Position numbers and translations under genes: made by a program. The notes under the pieces were generated by a model. It saw only the letters and a list, made by a program, of their open reading frames with translations, had not been told where the DNA came from and did no database searches. A stretch of DNA of 64,000 nucleotides from Escherichia coli (GTDB lineage: Bacteria > Pseudomonadota > Gammaproteobacteria > Enterobacterales > Enterobacteriaceae): NCBI RefSeq assembly GCF_003991155.1, contig NZ_CP031293.1; one strand, given 5' to 3'. Position 1 is the first letter of the stretch. The number at the start of each line of letters is the position of its first letter. Shown one piece after another: positions 1 through 61,207 of the stretch.

Positions 1-631
1 TTACCTTGCGCTTCTCGCGGAAGATATTGAACGCGATATTCCCTACGATCCCGAACCCATTGGCAGATACAACGTCGCGCCGGGAACCAAAGTTCTTCTG
101 CTCAGTGAACGTGATGAACACCTTCATCTGGATCCGGTTTTCTGGGGATATGCTCCCGGATGGTGGGATAAACCGCCGCTGATTAACGCCCGCGTAGAAA
201 CTGCGGCCACCAGTCGTATGTTTAAACCGCTCTGGCAACATGGTCGGGCAATCTGTTTTGCCGATGGCTGGTTTGAGTGGAAAAAAGAAGGCGACAAAAA
301 ACAGCCTTATTTTATCTATCGCGCTGATGGACAACCTGTTTTTATGGCCGCGATAGGTAGCACACCGTTTGAGCGCGGTGACGAAGCCGAAGGATTTTTA
401 ATTGTCACTGCAGCAGCAGACCAGGGTCTGGTAGATATTCATGACCGCCGCCCGCTGGTTCTGTCGCCAGAAGCTGCACAGGAATGGATGCGGCAAGAGA
501 TTGGCGGTAAAGAAGCATCAGAAATTGCTACCAACGGCTGTGTGCCAGCAAACCAGTTCACCTGGCACCCGGTATCGCGCGCGGTGGGTAATATCAAAAA
601 CCAGGGAGCGGAGTTAATTCAACCGGTTTGA
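1..631 (+). CDS. yedK: SOS-response-associated peptidase YedK (SRAP), 5'-truncated by window start
   Basis: Frame continuous from window start; translation YLALLAEDIERDIPYDPEPIGRYNVAPG...MFKPLWQHGRAICFADGWFEWKK matches my recollection of YedK; stop at 631. Confidence 0.85.
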   Translation, partial: YLALLAEDIERDIPYDPEPIGRYNVAPGTKVLLLSERDEHLHLDPVFWGYAPGWWDKPPLINARVETAATSRMFKPLWQHGRAICFADGWFEWKKEGDKKQPYFIYRADGQPVFMAAIGSTPFERGDEAEGFLIVTAAADQGLVDIHDRRPLVLSPEAAQEWMRQEIGGKEASEIATNGCVPANQFTWHPVSRAVGNIKNQGAELIQPV

Positions 632-1035
632 TAAGCCAGGAGACTATTGATCAATAATACTGCGTCATAAGAAATCTCTATTAGACAAAGTAGACGCTCC
701 TTCCACATGCGCCACAAGAAACCTCTATTCCAGTGACACAATTACGCCTGATTATTTCCCTAGCCCGGAATATGAATAAAAACATCAACAAAGATTAAAT
801 TATTCAAACGTTACTGTTGCGTCTGCGGTCGTAACAACAACCGACCTGGTGATGCGTGTTAAAGGAGACACTCTGATGTTCAGGGGGGTTATCACGTATA
901 CGGATCGTGGATGGCAGAAAACAATCAGGATCAGGTATCCATTTTAAACCAGAAATTGAGTGAGTTTGCCCCATCCATGCCCCACGCTGTGGGATCGGAT
1001 GTAATTAAACAAGCATAGTCAACAGGTTACAAAAC

Positions 1036-1350
1036 CTACACCTGCATGGACATCACTTCCTGATACGCCGCCACCAGCTTATTACGCACCTGAATCCCCA
1101 TTTGCATTGAAACTGAGGCTTTTTGCATATCGGTCATCACATCGTTTAACGCCACGCCGGGTTCACCGAGGGTGAATTTTTCTGCCTGCGTGCGGGCGGC
1201 TGTTTGTGTATCGCTTATGCGATCGAGCGCGGCGTGCAGCTGCCCGGCAAAACTAATGGTCGGTTGTGGCAGTGATTCCTGCGCACGCGCACTCATCGCC
1301 GTAGCCTGTAACTGGCTGATAACCCCTTCAATCCCCTGTATCGCTGACAT
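1036..1350 (-). CDS. fliE: Flagellar hook-basal body complex protein FliE (104 aa)
   Basis: ORF 1036..1380 trimmed to Met11 ([15 protein letters not shown]...); divergent from fliF as in enterobacterial flagellar region. Confidence 0.93.
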
Positions 1351-1564
1351 TTTCGTCTCCCGAATAATTTCTGGTAGCAAAGCCTACCAGTAAGTCAATA
1401 AGACAAAGGCGCTAAATAGCAACAAAAAAACGGGTTTATTGGCGGATAGAAAAAAACGAAAGCACAAATAATGGCAGCGTCAATTTTTCGAGTTTGCTGA
1501 CCCGGGAGTGAGTCTTGTTCCACTTTGCCAATAACGCCGTCCATAATCAGCCACGAGGTGCGCG
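1351..1564. promoter_or_regulatory. fliE-fliF divergent intergenic region, expected to hold FlhDC-dependent class 2 flagellar promoters
   Basis: Position between divergently transcribed fliE and fliF; established flagellar regulon organisation; no motif was located precisely. Confidence 0.45.
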
Positions 1565-4889
<3,325 letters not shown>

Positions 4890-27700: not shown

Positions 27701-28711
<1,011 letters not shown>

Positions 28712-29347
28712 ATGCGTCTGACAGCAAAACAGGTGACATGGCTGAAAGTTTGCCTGCATCTTGCCGGATTGTTGCCGTTTCTCTGGCTGGTCTGGGCGAT
28801 TAATCACGGTGGACTGGGTGCCGATCCGGTGAAAGATATTCAGCATTTTACCGGTCGCACTGCACTGAAATTTTTGCTGGCGACCTTGTTAATCACACCT
28901 CTGGCACGCTACGCAAAACAGCCGTTATTGATACGCACTCGCCGCCTGTTAGGATTATGGTGCTTTGCCTGGGCGACACTGCATTTAACCAGTTACGCAT
29001 TGCTGGAGCTGGGCGTGAATAATCTGGCGTTATTAGGTAAGGAGTTAATTACCCGGCCTTATTTAACGTTAGGTATTATCAGCTGGGTAATTTTGCTTGC
29101 GTTAGCGTTCACTTCAACCCAGGCGATGCAGCGAAAACTCGGCAAACACTGGCAACAGTTGCATAACTTCGTCTATCTTGTCGCGATCCTGGCCCCAATA
29201 CATTATCTGTGGTCAGTGAAGATTATTTCACCGCAGCCACTCATCTACGCTGGGCTGGCTGTACTGCTTTTAGCCTTACGGTATAAGAAGTTGCTTTCCC
29301 TTTTCAACCGGTTACGCAAGCAGGCCCACAACAAATTATCTCTATAA
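28712..29347 (+). CDS. msrQ: Methionine sulfoxide reductase haem-binding membrane subunit MsrQ/YedZ (211 aa)
   Basis: Polytopic membrane protein immediately after msrP. Confidence 0.93.
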
Positions 29348-29380
29348 CTTCATATTGCCGACAAACTTCGCGTTATCCCG

Positions 29381-29411
29381 GCCGGATGCGGCGCGAGCGC
29401 CCTATCCGGCC
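29381..29411. repeat. REP (repetitive extragenic palindromic) element
   Basis: GCCGGATGCGGCGCGAGCGCCCTATCCGGCC, classic E. coli REP consensus-like palindrome. Confidence 0.7.
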
Positions 29412-29604
29412 CACACAGATCGCATCAGGTTATGTTTCGTTTGTCATCAACCTTTCATCACCAGAATAATTTATTTTATTTCAATAAGATAGTTCAATAC
29501 ACCTGAGAATACCATGCTCTCATTTCCTAATGAGTTGTTGCATTTTTTCATATGTTACAATATAACATTACACATCATGTACATTAACTCTGGAGGAAAC
29601 TGTT

Positions 29605-30255
29605 TTGGCGATTCGTCTTCATAAACTGGCTGTTGCTTTTGGTGTCTTTATTGTCAGCGCTCCTGCCTTTTCGCATGGTCATCACTCACACGGCAAACCT
29701 TTAACAGAGATCGAACAAAAAGCTGCTAATGGTGTTTTTGATGATGCCAATGTACAAAATCGAACGCTCAGTGACTGGGATGGAGTCTGGCAATCCGTTT
29801 ATCCTTTACTGCAAAGTGGCAAACTTGACCCCGTCTTTCAGAAGAAAGCGGATGCAGATAAAACTAAAACATTTGCTGAAATTAAAGATTATTATCACAA
29901 AGGTTATGCGACAGATATCGAGATGATTGGCATTGAGGACGGCATTGTTGAATTCCATAGAAATAATGAAACAACATCCTGCAAATATGATTACGATGGA
30001 TACAAAATACTCACCTATAAATCAGGCAAGAAAGGCGTTCGTTACTTATTCGAATGTAAAGATCCTGAAAGCAAAGCCCCTAAATATATTCAATTTAGCG
30101 ATCATATAATTGCACCACGAAAATCATCTCATTTTCACATTTTTATGGGTAATGATTCCCAGCAATCTTTATTGAATGAAATGGAAAACTGGCCAACGTA
30201 TTATCCCTATCAGTTGAGTAGCGAAGAAGTAGTCGAGGAGATGATGTCTCATTGA
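29605..30255 (+). CDS. zinT: Periplasmic zinc/cadmium-binding protein ZinT/YodA (216 aa)
   Basis: Signal peptide then His-rich HGHHSHGKP motif; 216 aa. Confidence 0.93.
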
Positions 30256-30343
30256 TTTTTTTGCGCTGACTTCAATTATTTAACAGAACAGTGCCTGGTA
30301 GTAACGACAATAATTTACCAAGACAAATAAATAAGACAAACTC

Positions 30344-30377
30344 AGACACGCTCATGCTTGAGACGTGTCTTTTTTAT
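30344..30377 (+). terminator. Rho-independent terminator downstream of zinT
   Basis: AGACACG...CGTGTCT hairpin followed by TTTTTTATT. Confidence 0.7.
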
Positions 30378-30924
30378 TATGTCTGCAGAAAAAAACTGAG
30401 AAAACGGCGAACAATAAATATACAACTCACCAATACAGACTGGCTGCGCCAATGTCTCCAGGAGCAAGTCATCTGTCATGGTAAAGCTAACCATAAATAT
30501 AGGTTAATTTTGGTATTTAAACCTTTTTTACTTGTTAGTATGATACAAGGGCTTTCAAAAAAGCTGGGAAATTCAACAACTCTTGGAAATTATGGACTTT
30601 GTCCCGCGGCTTTAATCTGACGGCCGCGCTCCTTTTTTTGCTCAATTATTGGCCCCTTCTCTACGCAACTTCAGTTCCCACCACCAACTTTGCGGCAGCT
30701 TTGTAGGATCAATGTCTAAAAGAATAATGGTGACCGATAAGAAAACGACTGAATAATTGCAGATTTTCGCTCGAAACCTTCCTGTCAGATCCATAGCGAA
30801 TCAAGTGCTGAATGTCACAGTATCGAACAGAAAACAGTGACGATCTAACCCTTCAAGAATATTCTACGATTGTTCTGTTTAGGAAAAGCAAGGCGGGAAG
30901 TCGGGAGATAAGTCATTGATAAAG

Positions 30925-52860: not shown

Positions 52861-52950
52861 TGGCGGAGAGAGGGGGATTTGAACCCCCGGTAGAGTTGCC
52901 CCTACTCCGGTTTTCGAGACCGGTCCGTTCAGCCGCTCCGGCATCTCTCC
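52861..52950 (-). tRNA. serU: tRNA-Ser (anticodon CGA)
   Basis: Reverse complement GGAGAGATGCCGGAGCGGCTGAACGGACCGGTCTCGAAAACCGG...GGTTCAAATCCCCCTCTCTCCGCCA has long variable arm and CGA anticodon. Confidence 0.92.
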
Positions 52951-53941: not shown

Positions 53942-54017
53942 TCCTCTGTAGTTCAGTCGGTAGAACGGCGGACTGTTAATCCGTATGTCACTGGTTCGAG
54001 TCCAGTCAGAGGAGCCA
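53942..54017 (+). tRNA. asnT: tRNA-Asn (anticodon GTT)
   Basis: TCCTCTGTAGTTCAGTCGGTAGAACGGCGGACTGTTAATCCGTATGTCACTGGTTCGAGTCCAGTCAGAGGAGCCA, 76 nt. Confidence 0.93.
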
Positions 54018-54183
54018 AATTTTAGTCTTGAGACATCTCTATAAGTCTCAGGATAGTTAAAAAACAAGAACTTATCTTTACCCGGTTGTCTCGCAAGAGG
54101 CTGCTGGGTTTCTTGACATCCATAGTTTTTAGGGGCCTAATCAGGGGCCTCACGGTTCGGTGAGCAAACGGAGCCCCCACGCT

Positions 54184-55446
54184 ATGGCATTAACAGACAC
54201 CGCTATTCGCAAGACTAAACCCTCTGACAAACCCTTCAAAATGACGGACAGTTCTGGACTGTACCTGTTGATCAAACCTAACGGCTCAAAACTCTGGTAT
54301 ATGAAGTACCGCATCGACGGCAAAGAGAAGAAACTGGCCTTTGGCCCCTACCCGGAGATCTCCCTGTTGCAGGCTCGCCGCCTGCGCGAAACAGCACGCA
54401 ATAACATTCATGCAGGCGTCGATCCGGCTGCGGTGAAGCAAACCGAGAAACAGAAGAGGAAAAACGGGCAGACGTTCAGCCAGATCGCCATCAACTGGCA
54501 TAGCGAGCATAAACGCTGGTCTGAGCATTACGCGAAAACGGTTATGCGCAGGCTGGAAATGTACGTTTTCCCGGATATCGGGGATCGCCTTATCGAGGAG
54601 ATCGAAACGGAGGATTTGTTATTCACGTTGCGCAAGGTAGAGAGTAAAGGCTTTCTGGAAATCACCGCGCGGCTGAAAAACTACGTCACCGATATCATGC
54701 ACTACGCGATGAAAAAGAAACTGCTCAAAGCGAACCCGGCGCTGTATCTGGACGGTGAGTTTGCCGCGCCAGAAACCAGTCACTACCCGGCCCTGTCGCT
54801 GGATAAGTTGCCTGAGCTTTTATCCCGGACAGAGAATTACTGCGGCAGGCTGCTGACGAAATACGCCCTCAAACTTTCGCTGCTGTTTTTCGTGCGCTCC
54901 AGCGAGCTACGTTTTGCCCGCTGGAGTGAAATCGACTGGCAGCAAAAACTGTGGGTGATCCCGGAAGAACGCGAGCAGATCGAAAACGTGCGCTTCTCTT
55001 ACCGGGGGGCGAAAATGAAAATCCAGCACATTGTGCCGCTGTCGGATCAGGCGATTGCGATACTGAAGCAGATCGAGGCCCTCTCCGGGCATCTGGCCTT
55101 TATTTTTCCCGGCGAATACGACCAGAACAAGTGCATGAGCGACAACACCGTCAACAAGGCGCTGCGCGTGATGGGTTACGACACCAAAAAGGATATCTGC
55201 GGGCATGGCTTCCGGGCAATGGCCTGTAGTGCGCTGAGCGAATCGGGATTATGGAGCAAAGAAGCCATTGAAAAGCAGATGAGCCACCAGGAAAGAAACA
55301 GCGTCCGTGCTGCCTATATTCACAAGGCTGAATATCTGGAGGAACGGATCGAGATGATGCAGTGGTGGTCAGATTATCTTGATGCAAACAGTGACGGGTA
55401 TGTCTCGGCTTACCAGTATGCCCGCCGCCTAAAACAGGCGTCGTAA
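54184..55446 (+). CDS. P4-like tyrosine integrase of asnT-associated island
   Basis: MALTDTAIRKTKPSDKPFKMTDSSGLYLLIKPNGSKLWYMKYR N-terminus typical of P4-family integrases; directly downstream of the tRNA 3' end. Confidence 0.9.
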   Translation: MALTDTAIRKTKPSDKPFKMTDSSGLYLLIKPNGSKLWYMKYRIDGKEKKLAFGPYPEISLLQARRLRETARNNIHAGVDPAAVKQTEKQKRKNGQTFSQIAINWHSEHKRWSEHYAKTVMRRLEMYVFPDIGDRLIEEIETEDLLFTLRKVESKGFLEITARLKNYVTDIMHYAMKKKLLKANPALYLDGEFAAPETSHYPALSLDKLPELLSRTENYCGRLLTKYALKLSLLFFVRSSELRFARWSEIDWQQKLWVIPEEREQIENVRFSYRGAKMKIQHIVPLSDQAIAILKQIEALSGHLAFIFPGEYDQNKCMSDNTVNKALRVMGYDTKKDICGHGFRAMACSALSESGLWSKEAIEKQMSHQERNSVRAAYIHKAEYLEERIEMMQWWSDYLDANSDGYVSAYQYARRLKQAS

Positions 55447-55569
55447 GTTAACAAAGCATCAGAGGGGGAAAAGGTATATTCCCCCTTTGTGCGTTTCAAA
55501 TGTCGATGCTGACTGTAGCTTTTAAACTAAATTACTGGATAAAAAGTAGCTTTTAAGCTACTATCTTTT

Positions 55570-55743
55570 ATGAAAACGATAAAGACCTACATAACTGCCG
55601 ACGGGCGAGATCTGTATGCAGAGTTTTTTAAAGGGTTACGCAACCCCATCGCGAAGGCAACGATCGCTTCCCGGATCAACCGGATGGCTTCGGACAATTT
55701 TGGCGACCATAAGCCCTGCCGGGAAGGTGTCTGGGAACTGTAG
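55570..55743 (+). pseudogene. Addiction-module killer-type toxin gene (RelE/ParE superfamily), 3'-truncated by IS insertion
   Basis: MKTIKTYITADGRDLYAEFFKGLRNPIAKATIASRINRMASDNFGDHKPCREGVWEL then stop inside the IS left end. Confidence 0.6.
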
Positions 55744-55746
55744 TGG

Positions 55747-57709
<1,963 letters not shown>

Positions 57710-57988
57710 ATCTCGTTCTCCTTCATAACATTCCAGATTCCAGAGGTACTTCGTGCTGCTATAACGTACCCGACAACCGGAACACCGGGACAGACAATGG
57801 ATGCGGTATTCGGTTATAAAACGGTATATATTTAAATAGTGAACACCATGAGCGTAATATATTTATTTGATGAATGTATTGATGAAAGGAAAATTGCTTT
57901 TTAGCTATTATCGGCGGGTGTATAATTTAGTCCGTTTTTTTCAAATAAATAATCGCAAATAGCATCTGATGCCACTGAGGACGCAGGT

Positions 57989-58780
57989 ATGAATTTCAGA
58001 CCAGCAGTATATTTATGTGCAGCAACATTTTTACTGGCTGGCTGTGCGCCACGCTCCCCCATTGATGCGAAGAAAACGGGCGCATCCGCCAAAGAGAGCA
58101 GCATCAGCAAAAACACAACGGCACAACTGACCGATAAAGATATTTTTGGCAATGAAACCACGCTGGCAGTTTCTGAGGAAGATATTCAGGCAGCACTGGA
58201 AGGCGAAGCGTTCCGCGTGCCGCTGAATTCACCCGTGATTCTGGTTCAATCCGGTAGCCGCGCACCGGAGGCCATGATGCAGCAGGAAATGAGTAAATAT
58301 TATACCGTTGCCACATTCTCCGGTATCCCGGACAGACAAAAACCTGTGACCTGTAACAAAGACAAAAACAAAGATAAAAGCGAGAACCAGGATGTTGCTG
58401 TTGTTGAGAATATGAACTGGATGCAGGCACTGCGTTTTGTGGCTGCAAAAGGACATCAGAAATCGATTATTGTTTACCAGGATACGTTGCAGACAGGAAA
58501 ATATGACTCTGCGCTGAAATCAACAGTGTGGTCAGATTATAAAAATCAAAAACTAACTGACACAATGTCATTACGTTTTTTGGTTCGCTTCACTCTGGTG
58601 GATGTGGCAACTGGCGAGTGGGCTACCTGGTCACCTGTAAATTATGAGTCCAGAGTTATCTTCCCTCAGACTGAAAAAAAGGGTGCAATCACTACCGATG
58701 TGACAGAGCAACAAATCACCCAGCTTAAGCAGAAAACATACGCAGCAATGACCAGGGATCTGGTGAACCGCTATCAGTAA
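57989..58780 (+). CDS. Lipoprotein (263 aa)
   Basis: Signal/lipobox FLLAGCAP; Lys/Asp-rich central region. Confidence 0.6.
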
Positions 58781-58988
58781 GCAACATCCCCCTTACCTGC
58801 CGCTAATAAATAGTGGCGGCAGGCACTGGCACGAAAAACTCCCTGATGCTGACGATTATTAAACATCTTTCTGGTATTTTCTGTTGCAAACCATCCCATT
58901 CATAGCATATCAGTATCCATCATTTTAAATTTACAGTGATTGTATGCCTCAAAGCTAATCGCTTCCGATGATGGTGCCCGCAATAAAT

Positions 58989-59288
58989 TTAATCGGAATC
59001 GTCTTCTGTATCCTCCTCATATGAATCCCTGACGGTCCCCAGTTTTGTATTGCCATTGGCAGGCGTCCCATCTCCCATCAGAACGTCGATGTCATAGCCA
59101 GGATATTGTTTCTTTATATTGCGTTTGAACTCTGAGACCGTCGAATCATTTTTGGACATTTTCACCCGCTGATATTGTGGCATATCTTTTTTATCACCCC
59201 GGACGTCCTTACCATCGGGTGTTTTGAAGCGAACATCAAATCCCTGTACATCCCAGATTTTCTTTTCAACATTTTTTACTAATGGCAT
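58989..59288 (-). CDS. Hypothetical small protein (99 aa) downstream of hcp
   Basis: ORF with acidic C-terminal tail. Confidence 0.45.
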   Translation of the reverse strand: MPLVKNVEKKIWDVQGFDVRFKTPDGKDVRGDKKDMPQYQRVKMSKNDSTVSEFKRNIKKQYPGYDIDVLMGDGTPANGNTKLGTVRDSYEEDTEDDSD

Positions 59289-59340
59289 TTTTATTCTCTC
59301 TTCAGAAAATTACACTAAATCAAAAAAAGTATCGCTATTC

Positions 59341-59820
59341 TTAATAGAGTCTCTCTTCCCATAAGCTATATGCACTGGTTCCTGCAACACAGTGCTCCTG
59401 AGTAATACTTTCATAGGTGAATGATATGGCCTCTTCTGGTTGTCCCTGGCTATTGTTGACAGTGTGCGGCACAATATGCTTTATGCTGGCAATGCGGGCG
59501 TTAATCAGCTTCACTTTGAAATACAGCTCGTTAATACCAAAACGGTTGGTGCGGTAATACTCAAAATCACAGGTCAGACACTCATTTTCGCTGATAGCCT
59601 TACTCAACAAAGGGGAAGATTTATCCACGGGTTTCTGAATAATGAGCGCTTGATGATTCACGTTTTGTGCACGGGTTAATCCGTGGCTGAGTCCCAGCAC
59701 CATGATCTGATCCATATGCGCAATCTGCGCTTTGTTCCCAATAGATGCCAGTGATGAACAGCCTGCGGAGATCAGCCCCTGGAGATCGCCGTTCAGTGTC
59801 AGGTAAACAGGATTTGCCAT
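59341..59820 (-). CDS. hcp: Type VI secretion system tube protein Hcp (159 aa)
   Basis: MANPVYLTLNGDLQG...KPVDKSSPLL...ISFTYESITQEH pattern characteristic of the Hcp family. Confidence 0.8.
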   Translation of the reverse strand: MANPVYLTLNGDLQGLISAGCSSLASIGNKAQIAHMDQIMVLGLSHGLTRAQNVNHQALIIQKPVDKSSPLLSKAISENECLTCDFEYYRTNRFGINELYFKVKLINARIASIKHIVPHTVNNSQGQPEEAISFTYESITQEHCVAGTSAYSLWEERLY

Positions 59821-59841
59821 ATTAAGCTCCTTGGTCCGGGG

Positions 59842-61197
59842 TTATTTCCCGACCCCTTTATCAATAATTGCCGTTTCCGGTAGAGAGTGATTTTTCAGCA
59901 ACAACCAGCGACTTAACACGCCGTCCAGCCGCTCGTTAATCTGTTTTTCCAGTACGTCGGTATTCTGCCCCTGCGCACGGGCGTCCTGGTACTGCGTCAG
60001 CAGCGACTCAACGGGTGTTTCCTGCCCCAGCCCCCGCTCCGCCTGCCAGATAACATTTTTGATGTAGGAAAGGGTTACCCCCTCTTTCTCACGTTTCATC
60101 ACGAGGTCTGCAAAGGCATGTAAGTCCTGGCGGGCCTGTAACCAGCCGCGTAACTGTGGACTACTCTGCGCACGAGTTTTCAGCGTCTCATTCCACTGTG
60201 CGGTGGCCTGCTGCTGTTGCAGACTCTCCGGCCAGCGGCTGTCGGCGGTACGCGCCATCTGTAAGCCCGTATTCAGCGGCTGAACAGGTGAAGCATCAAG
60301 GAGTTGCTGTAGCCTGCGCTCATAGTTTTCCAGCTCAGGCGACACAAGCCAGACTGTCGCAGCGCCCTGCGCGGTATCGCTGACCTGGGTGAGTTGTTGC
60401 TGCATGGGAGAGACCAGCCACCACCAGAGAGCGGCGGCAACAGCCCCGGAGCAGAGAACACCCGCGATAAAACCTTTCACCGCACTGCCCTGCTTTGCCA
60501 CACTGGTCGGTGGCGTACTGTCAGCCAGGCTGCGCACCTCCACCTTCATCTCCGGCAGTTCAGGCAGCGGCGGCATCACCGTTTCGGTTGCTGGCGTAAT
60601 ACCGTTTTCCGGGGCATAAATCAGCGTTCTGACCGTGGTCTGTGCGGTGTGTTCAACGCTGCTTTTCGGCTGCGGCTCAAGTCGTTTACGCGTGTTCTGA
60701 ACAAAATAAAGCAGGTTTTCCACGCGCGGCTGGCGCTTCAGTTCCACCTGCTGGAGCTTGTCACAGATAAGCTGTAGTGCCCGTTCCGTGCGATATAACA
60801 GAGGCAGGTCAGCCTCCACAAAGGATATCTGCTGGCGCAGGATATTCCCGGTGCGGGTGTTGAACCAGTCCAGCATCTCGGTCCGCGCCGGGCCGCCCTG
60901 CGGCCAGAAGTTATCCCACTCGTGAGTGACCATCGCCGCCAGCAATTCCGCCCCTTCGCAGAATCCCGCCAGCCCCTGTGTCCGGGTCCGGGCCAGCGTG
61001 TAGTAGGTGGCGGTATGCAAATCCACCCCGTTGGCCTTAAATATCGCCAGCGCCAGCGACTCCACCAGTTTCCAGTTCAGCTCCGGCTGCGACGGGTGGC
61101 TGGCCTTGTTGATTTCCTCGCGGATGGCGCTGAACTCTGGCAGGCCACGCGGGTCACTGCCGGTAACGATAGTTTGTGTCAGTACGTTATTGCTCAT
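59842..61197 (-). CDS. Type VI secretion TssA/VasL-family protein (ImpA N-terminal domain with internal TM segment)
   Basis: N-terminal ImpA-like region (DPRGLPEFSAIREEINK...NWKLV...LLAAMVTHEWDNFWPQ), hydrophobic segment FIAGVLCSGAVAAALWWWLV; start set at MSNNVLTQ with GAGGAG RBS just after tssM stop. Confidence 0.7.
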   Translation of the reverse strand: MSNNVLTQTIVTGSDPRGLPEFSAIREEINKASHPSQPELNWKLVESLALAIFKANGVDLHTATYYTLARTRTQGLAGFCEGAELLAAMVTHEWDNFWPQGGPARTEMLDWFNTRTGNILRQQISFVEADLPLLYRTERALQLICDKLQQVELKRQPRVENLLYFVQNTRKRLEPQPKSSVEHTAQTTVRTLIYAPENGITPATETVMPPLPELPEMKVEVRSLADSTPPTSVAKQGSAVKGFIAGVLCSGAVAAALWWWLVSPMQQQLTQVSDTAQGAATVWLVSPELENYERRLQQLLDASPVQPLNTGLQMARTADSRWPESLQQQQATAQWNETLKTRAQSSPQLRGWLQARQDLHAFADLVMKREKEGVTLSYIKNVIWQAERGLGQETPVESLLTQYQDARAQGQNTDVLEKQINERLDGVLSRWLLLKNHSLPETAIIDKGVGK

Positions 61198-61207
61198 CCC
61201 TGTCTCC

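Follow-up and report, generated by a model that had tools for sequence, protein, structure and literature searches.

In Escherichia coli K-12, zinT is followed by yodB, which encodes a 176-amino-acid protein of the cytochrome b561 family, and then by the tRNA gene serU. In the stretch of E. coli DNA studied here (64,000 nucleotides of contig NZ_CP031293.1, assembly GCF_003991155.1; hereafter 'the window'), zinT is followed by 669 bp in which no yodB is seen, and then by a direct repeat of the serU 3' end at which a genomic island begins (Table 1). What has become of yodB? A first-pass annotation, made from the letters of the window alone, suggested a deletion or replacement at the island junction, or else a remnant of an earlier element. 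Our results indicate that the 669 bp very probably represents a short, yodB-less form of the zinT-serU spacer, one of two haplotypes that are both old and common in E. coli, and not damage caused by the island.

Comparison with K-12 places the difference between the two loci away from the island. In K-12, the zinT stop codon is followed by 995 bp containing yodB, then by 447 bp and serU; in the window, it is followed by 222 bp, then by the same 447 bp and the attachment (att) repeat. Collinearity with K-12 holds throughout these 447 bp, to the last base ahead of serU, and so the replacement stops 447 bp short of the att repeat. The junction itself is clean: at 30925, K-12 runs on into serU and the window into the island. 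When the 222-bp and 995-bp segments are compared by local alignment, only a zinT terminator hairpin is found in common. The K-12 locus (b1973-b1975) thus shares with the window its flanking genes, the offset of the zinT hairpin and the 447 bp at 95% identity, but holds 995 bp with yodB where the window holds 222 unrelated bp. The suggestion of a replacement is therefore right with respect to K-12, but its placement at the island junction is not. A sliding comparison of the flanks of the two haplotypes gives unremarkable identities (90-100%), with no sign of an imported block, and the curated MG1655 record has nothing annotated in the counterpart of the 447 bp.

The short spacer is widespread. 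Among 5426 complete E. coli genomes, the yodB segment was detected in 3114 and the 222-bp segment in 2292, which adds up to 5406. Over its full length, the 669-bp interval matches intergenic DNA without annotation in 2281 of the 5426, which is the kind of conserved intergenic match that the first-pass annotation had itself set against its proposal. What tempers our reading is that the genome collection is skewed to clinical lineages, and such percentages describe the database and not frequencies in the species. Both forms of the spacer are found with and without the island. K-12 has yodB and no island, and 14 genomes combine yodB with the same att/integrase junction as the window (in silico chimeric query, 100% coverage). 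The sequence type (ST) 131 strain 4224 and strain CP131_Sichuan have neither yodB nor island, an intact serU lying directly adjacent to the short spacer; lack of yodB is thus not always accompanied by an island or a scar at serU. Finally, the window, MRY15-117, HB42, Nissle 1917 and 95-3322 have the island and no yodB.

These combinations bear directly on the idea that integration of the serU island, or a later rearrangement, removed or replaced yodB at the junction. It is true that yodB is absent where an island lies 669 bp from zinT, and that a statistical association exists: the att/integrase junction occurs in 384 of the 5426 genomes, and about 370 of these lack yodB. Yet the 447 bp next to the att repeat is intact, the same spacer stands beside an unoccupied serU in 4224 and CP131_Sichuan, yodB coexists with the junction in 14 genomes, and the short form is found in 2292 genomes while the junction is found in only 384. 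We thus regard this explanation as barely credible, refuted as it is by the island-free yodB-less genomes and by those that have both yodB and the island. The association of the junction with yodB-less genomes most simply reflects the shared ancestry of lineages, not causation.

Variation of yodB has been noted before. In clone ST410, sub-clone B4/H24RxC has yodB and sub-clone B5/H24RxC lacks it, so that the gene already serves as a variable marker (PMC10786849). Because yodB is a known variable gene, the absence reported here is, as stated, an ordinary finding: yodB is an accessory gene, its absence is a normal haplotype, and annotators should not flag it as a lesion.

The first-pass annotation was correct about the K-12 gene order, with zinT, yodB, serU, mtfA and asnT succeeding one another in the curated MG1655 record and in a K-12 derivative. 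Its statement that about 670 bp between zinT and the att repeat lacks a convincing gene is likewise borne out by open reading frames (ORFs), Pfam, RefSeq and tblastn. Between zinT and serU, the window has no ORF of about 176 amino acids with a Ni_hydr_CYTB domain (PF01292). No spacer ORF matches a Pfam family, and RefSeq annotates nothing under the 669-bp stretch in any of the 30 genomes listed. A tblastn search of the window with K-12 YodB gave chance-level matches only; the best of them (33842-33940, E = 0.003) lies antisense inside pilV, is hydrophobic and was rejected as chance. We also rejected as a gene the longest ORF of the 669 bp (30291-30620, 109 amino acids, GTG start). This ORF crosses both the zinT terminator and a promoter-like site, has no Pfam family (best E = 0.025), is interrupted by a premature stop codon in strain CP131_Sichuan, and shows almost exclusively nonsynonymous differences among strains. 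An Rfam scan of 29300-31200 returned nothing credible, a match to L20_leader at 30555-30641 scoring 16.8 bits against a threshold of 58.7.

If the spacer is no scar of the present island, does it derive from an older element? Two parts of the 447 bp shared by both haplotypes resemble phage sequences. The first, a module of about 125-160 bp with a promoter-like site and three hairpins at 30482-30641, is homologous to a small hairpin module of lambda-like prophages. In the four phage loci examined, the phage module is flanked by the Q antiterminator/tRNA genes on one side and by the holin gene on the other, and is oriented against the late genes; a copy is also present inside the SerU-LTIIb prophage. 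Using the terminator hairpin of the module as a search pattern, we retrieved 72 viral contigs, of which 11 represent the chromosomal locus, caught at the margin of a predicted prophage, and 61 carry a diverged whole module. Phage-type copies occur in 236 of the 5426 E. coli genomes and in only 2 of 50,697 phage records, while the chromosomal copy beside serU is present in about 5400 of the 5426 genomes and is unannotated even in K-12.

The second part is the 278 bp nearest to serU, which recurs beside attP in temperate phages with serU as their integration site. In the phages mEp332 and ev099, the match extends a further 60-62 bp into the 3' part of serU, and the phage segment (attP region) is located between tail-fibre genes and genes for an AraC-type regulator, transposase and integrase. 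The serU 3' end is used as attachment site by the SerU-LTIIb prophage, mEp332 and ev099. With a 62-bp serU core in mEp332 and ev099 and a 62-bp partial serU at the far junction of SerU-LTIIb, these elements resemble other phages that integrate at tRNA genes. They differ in that, on one side, the identity runs on past the core for another 278 bp, much more than a normal att core has. Together, the 278 bp and the serU 3' end would offer about 340 bp of homology to serU-integrating phages, a tractable case in which to study the origin of extended homology at att flanks and its effect on integration. Another element boundary within the spacer is seen in E. coli ETEC1701: at positions 3223-3423 of its locus (window 30478-30677), spacer homology stops at the equivalent of 30677 and gives way directly to prophage genes for TerL, a P27-family TerS and an HNH protein. 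There, the terminase coding sequence overlaps the last 36 bp of spacer homology, and no serU is found within 3 kb.

We infer from these homologies that the whole spacer may be the eroded skeleton of one or more lambda-like prophages once integrated at serU. A lambda-like prophage at this site would be expected to present, in order, terminase, a cargo gene, lysis genes, the Q-holin segment, the early region, integrase, the attP arm and the tRNA gene. Read toward serU, the K-12 spacer consists of yodB (plus strand), the module, the 278 bp and serU, an order and orientation that would be expected of these pieces in such a prophage. Large internal deletions of such a prophage would leave the pieces now present in K-12, and the window would be the version without yodB. 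The module and the 278 bp do stand, relative to serU, in the order of an integrated prophage. The suggestion of a remnant of an earlier element thus gains some ground, through homology of the module and the 278 bp to lambda-like phage sequences, an argument different from that of the first-pass annotation; on the other side, no phage protein genes are left. Indeed, several observations weigh against a prophage skeleton. No surviving phage protein gene or pseudogene is found in the spacer, yodB being the sole gene of the long haplotype, and the 98% identity of the 278 bp fits capture of host DNA by phages equally well.

Such a capture would make the spacer ordinary chromosomal DNA, from which phages took the 278 bp by imprecise excision at serU, and the module as well. 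Specialised transducing phages such as lambda gal/bio are known to carry host DNA. The high identity of the 278 bp suggests recent exchange, and in phages this segment lies exactly where aberrant excision would leave host DNA, next to the 62-bp core. Furthermore, the 130-146 bp nearest to serU is conserved in other Escherichia species, and the rarity of the module among phage records also favors a host origin. However, the module varies among phages, where at least 3 versions of the terminator and several of the 5' hairpin occur, all in one phage context, whereas on the chromosome there is one copy with almost no variation. E. albertii lacks the core of the module, about 113 bp (in E. coli, CCTTTTTT edges the corresponding segment on both sides), and the serU locus is a known phage attachment site. 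Overall, a host origin of the entire spacer seems unlikely to us. Taken by part, phage capture is quite plausible for the 278 bp and less plausible for the module, because the phage copies of the latter are diverse and always occur in one phage context.

The prophage skeleton also invites a closer look at yodB. The nearest relatives of YodB, 74-77% identical, are found in Citrobacter portucalensis, in Hafnia paralvei and in a large metagenomic cluster. Their genes are located on the opposite strand, between the holin-lysozyme-Rz genes and the HNH/terminase genes of lambda-like prophages; a Citrobacter paralogue adjoins a Bor-like gene. A more distant Salmonella relative is chromosomal. In phage lambda, bor is a cargo gene inserted after the lysis genes. 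By its closest relatives, which occupy the same post-lysis slot on the opposite strand, yodB resembles such cargo genes, or morons, of lambda-like phages. It differs from them in that E. coli yodB has no phage genes around it, and that the window has no yodB. On this basis, yodB appears to be a leftover phage cargo gene. Three results speak against the overall reading. First, the homology of the prophage yodB-like genes to K-12 is limited to the coding sequence, at 71.6% nucleotide identity. Second, no donor was found for the 995 bp: flanks of the prophage yodB-like genes have no homology to the K-12 flanks, and the only match of the 995 bp in the phage collection is the host flank of SerU-LTIIb. 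Third, none of the 50,697 phage records contains a yodB-like gene. K-12 annotation treats yodB as a housekeeping-looking gene of unknown function, and a possible origin as phage cargo is a useful by-product of the comparison.

We then asked which of the two haplotypes is older, using as outgroups the zinT loci of 80 other genomes. No yodB homologue lies within 4 kb of zinT in any of these 80 other-species loci, save in two contigs (L035 and L074). These are labelled as metagenome-assembled genomes of a 'Bacillota bacterium' and a 'Bacteroides sp.' and show an E. coli zinT-yodB-spacer arrangement at 99-100% identity; they are almost certainly E. coli sequence that contaminates these bins. In E. 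albertii, which has no yodB, an alignment at about 66% identity covers the 222-bp form over its full length. The alignment enters the start of the shared spacer and resumes over about 130-140 bp by serU (84-85% identity). Because E. albertii shares the 222-type sequence, the short arrangement, or at least its left part, predates the split of E. coli and E. albertii. This favors a scenario in which the long form gained yodB by replacement, rather than a recent loss in the short form. In the non-coli Escherichia sp. MOD1-EC7003 (L007, 4651-4816), we observed the same island junction with only about 151 bp from zinT to the att repeat, and no equivalent of window positions 30256-30778, zinT terminator included.

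The opposite order of events may also be envisaged: yodB would be ancestral in E. coli, a prophage having delivered yodB and the module together, and the short form would be an old loss. The K-12 order of yodB, module, 278 bp and serU fits that of a lambda-like prophage, and the module is found in both haplotypes; if both pieces came from one prophage, the yodB form would be the older. However, the 222 bp is no subset of the 995 bp, E. albertii has the 222-type sequence together with part of the upstream region of the module and no yodB, and no other species carries yodB beside zinT. An old loss is thus improbable in our estimation, though the case for a gain of yodB has its own weakness: as the haplotypes cannot be interconverted by simple insertion or deletion (about 90 bp from the zinT stop codon to the hairpin do not align), the direction of change rests mainly on one outgroup.

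The hairpin module deserves attention for another reason, since it may encode a small transcript. Downstream of a sigma-70 promoter-like site, we predict a transcript of about 90 nt ending at an intrinsic terminator (Table 1). The terminator (30605-30639) comprises a G+C-rich stem of 7 bp, a 10-nt loop and a U7 run (z = -2.4), as intrinsic terminators do. At the positions corresponding to the promoter, phage copies have a TTTAAACC box and a TAGTAT/TAATAT box. An 'orphan' RNA 3' end was identified by Term-seq at MG1655 position 2043181 (plus strand), with two entries in the supplementary table (Adams et al. 2021, PMC7815308). This position maps to 30638 in the window, at the end of the U-run of the module; it was measured in K-12, not in the present strain. 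Furthermore, Hfq RIL-seq in K-12 lists 'yodB.serU.IGR' with 39 and 33 chimeric fragments and 1-2 partners, the strand not being stated (PMC8175672). In the present strain, the module may yield an RNA of about 90 nt from a putative promoter of its own, with a predicted 5' end and a 3' end mapped in K-12 only.

Structural conservation is visible among the copies. Pair 6 of the terminator is C-G in 25 copies and U-A in 47, and never mixed. A consensus fold with phage copies has three hairpins, with compensatory changes in 4 of 16 pairs, 3 of them in the 5' hairpin; this rests on a small alignment, in which the 3' part was largely predetermined by the search pattern. No Rfam family was detected at the module, either for the window copy at E <= 10 or for the four phage loci at gathering score, and a literature search with the hairpin sequence returned no relevant paper. 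Within the predicted transcript, at 30554-30589, two tandem 18-nt units (TTCAAAAAAGCTGGGAAA and TTCAACAACTCTTGGAAA) are 78% identical; phage copies are unrelated there.

Known phage small RNAs (sRNAs) provide a comparison: PasA, PasC and PasD, and the Rfam families STnc100, AgvB, AsxR and Esr41. Phage copies of the module share with these a holin-side neighborhood, between Q and holin, and they end in a stem-loop and U-tract, as do the Pas sRNAs (bioRxiv 10.64898/2026.05.13.724894). A direct link to Pas was rejected: the module sequence differs from the published Pas probes. Besides, Pas genes are absent from K-12, whereas the module has a chromosomal copy in nearly all E. coli, K-12 included.

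Is the module, then, a gene of its own? We put forward only tentatively, as a possibility short of an even chance, that 30516-30640 is an expressed sRNA gene of phage origin fixed in the E. coli core genome, and that its relatives form an undescribed sRNA family of lambda-like phages, antisense to the late-operon leader between Q and holin. A serious competitor, which we rate a real possibility though below evens, is that the module is not its own gene: its terminator would end the K-12 yodB mRNA, leaving a 3' untranslated region of about 283 nt, and it would be a silent relic in yodB-less strains. Several facts count for this competitor and against an sRNA gene. The Term-seq end carries the label 'orphan' and has been assigned no start site, and it could be a product of yodB read-through in K-12. 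In the searchable, possibly truncated supplements of Cappable-seq and SMRT-Cappable-seq, no start site for the module was found. The RIL-seq sRNA scores of yodB.serU.IGR are low (0.010 and 0.046; PMC8175672), and the 92 nt have nothing unusual in their fold energy (z = -1.1). Against a mere 3' end of yodB, positions 30553-30627 are 98.7-100% identical between haplotypes while their flanks are only about 90% identical, the promoter-like boxes are retained in phage copies, which have no yodB upstream, and the hairpin pairs covary. In either case, the 'empty' 569-bp yodB-serU region of K-12 holds a conserved phage-related module with a mapped 3' end, a candidate for a domesticated phage small RNA. 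As an unannotated, phage-like transcript module, it represents a modest but testable novelty, a by-product of the main finding.

A second intrinsic terminator concerns zinT itself. The hairpin and U-run at 30344-30376 have the features of an intrinsic terminator and had been overlooked by a simple terminator scan. The fold reaches -15.3 kcal/mol (z = -5.1), with none of 200 shuffles as good. The hairpin begins about 87-88 nt past the zinT stop codon in the window versus 92 nt in K-12; a homologous hairpin is present at the same offset in K-12 and in E. albertii, where it carries compensatory changes. In the present strain, zinT transcription would end at this strong terminator. In K-12, the hairpin (3096-3135 of the K-12 locus) is followed by GUAUAUUAAU, with no U-run, unlike in the window. 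Transcription of zinT might therefore read through toward yodB in K-12, yet stop in the short haplotype.

Table 1. Positions of genes, spacer segments and predicted elements in the window
Feature	Position	Strand	Remarks
msrP	27707-28711	+	
msrQ	28712-29347	+	
zinT, left anchor gene	29605-30255	+	216-amino-acid ORF; annotated as zinT in the 100%-identical strain 2016C-3878
Gene-free spacer	30256-30924		669 bp, from the end of zinT (stop codon at 30255) to the 14-bp repeat of serU
Segment confined to the yodB-less (short) form	30256-30477		222 bp; K-12 counterpart of 995 bp with yodB
zinT intrinsic terminator	30344-30376	+	Hairpin 30344-30370, then U6 30371-30376
Spacer common to both haplotypes	30478-30924		MG1655 2043021-2043467; 447 bp, gapless, 95.3% identical to K-12
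Sigma-70 promoter-like site, TTTAAA-N17-TATGAT	30516-30544	+	Consensus scan, 9/12 matches; putative promoter
Predicted transcript of ~90 nt	30549-30640	+	From fold; predicted 5' end; 5' hairpin 30550-30565, small GGAC/GUCC hairpin 30594-30604, terminator hairpin 30605-30628, U-run 30633-30639
Segment common with attP flank of temperate phages integrating at serU	30647-30924		278 bp; 97.8-98.2% identity to mEp332, ev099 and PhiR70_1
serU-proximal part conserved across Escherichia	30779-30924		Window 100% identical to K-12; 94% in Escherichia sp. MOD1-EC7003
Direct repeat of serU 3' end, left att junction of island	30925-30938		14 bp, TGGCGGAGAGAGGG
Island tyrosine integrase	31103-32323	+	P4-type domain set: Pfam Arm-DNA-bind_3, Phage_int_M, Phage_integrase
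Intact serU, tRNA-Ser(CGA), right island end	52861-52950	-	ARAGORN
mtfA, then asnT	asnT: 53942-54017		Beyond serU

The island spans about 22 kb between the att repeat and the intact serU. Over the zinT-island region, the window and E. coli strain 2016C-3878 do not differ (100% identity). The 14-bp repeat TGGCGGAGAGAGGG has only one other copy in the window, at 52861-52874 inside serU, which makes two exact copies versus 0.01 expected by chance. The island integrase would have used only these last 14 bp of serU. Islands at tRNA genes usually have their integrase beside the intact tRNA gene. With the 3' end of the tRNA gene directly repeated on both sides and an integrase of the P4-type domain set, the present island resembles other tRNA islands with P4-type integrases, but its integrase adjoins the distal 14-bp repeat and a DUF6387 gene adjoins the intact serU, which reverses the usual order. 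Among the genes of the island are those of a type IV pilus, with a PilV shufflon adhesin; in Nissle 1917 and 95-3322, a different gene directly follows the integrase.

On the other side of zinT, the msrQ-zinT intergenic region (29357-29656) is 90-92% identical to K-12, with flanks at 97-99%. It contains a sub-threshold Rfam match to naRNA4, an RNA derived from repetitive extragenic palindromic (REP) sequences, at 29370-29411 (29.3 bits versus a threshold of 59.5). Insertions between msrQ and zinT were observed in two strains: an IS1397-family element in ST131 strain 4224 and an IS3-family element in ETEC1701.

Beyond serU, asnT borders another element (53942-63934), distinct from the yersiniabactin island found at asnT in many strains. 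This element includes a second P4-type integrase (54160-55446), an IS3-family transposase (55747-56493, minus strand) and, at 59842-63934 on the minus strand, type VI secretion genes of the VasL/ImpA and IcmF/TssM families.

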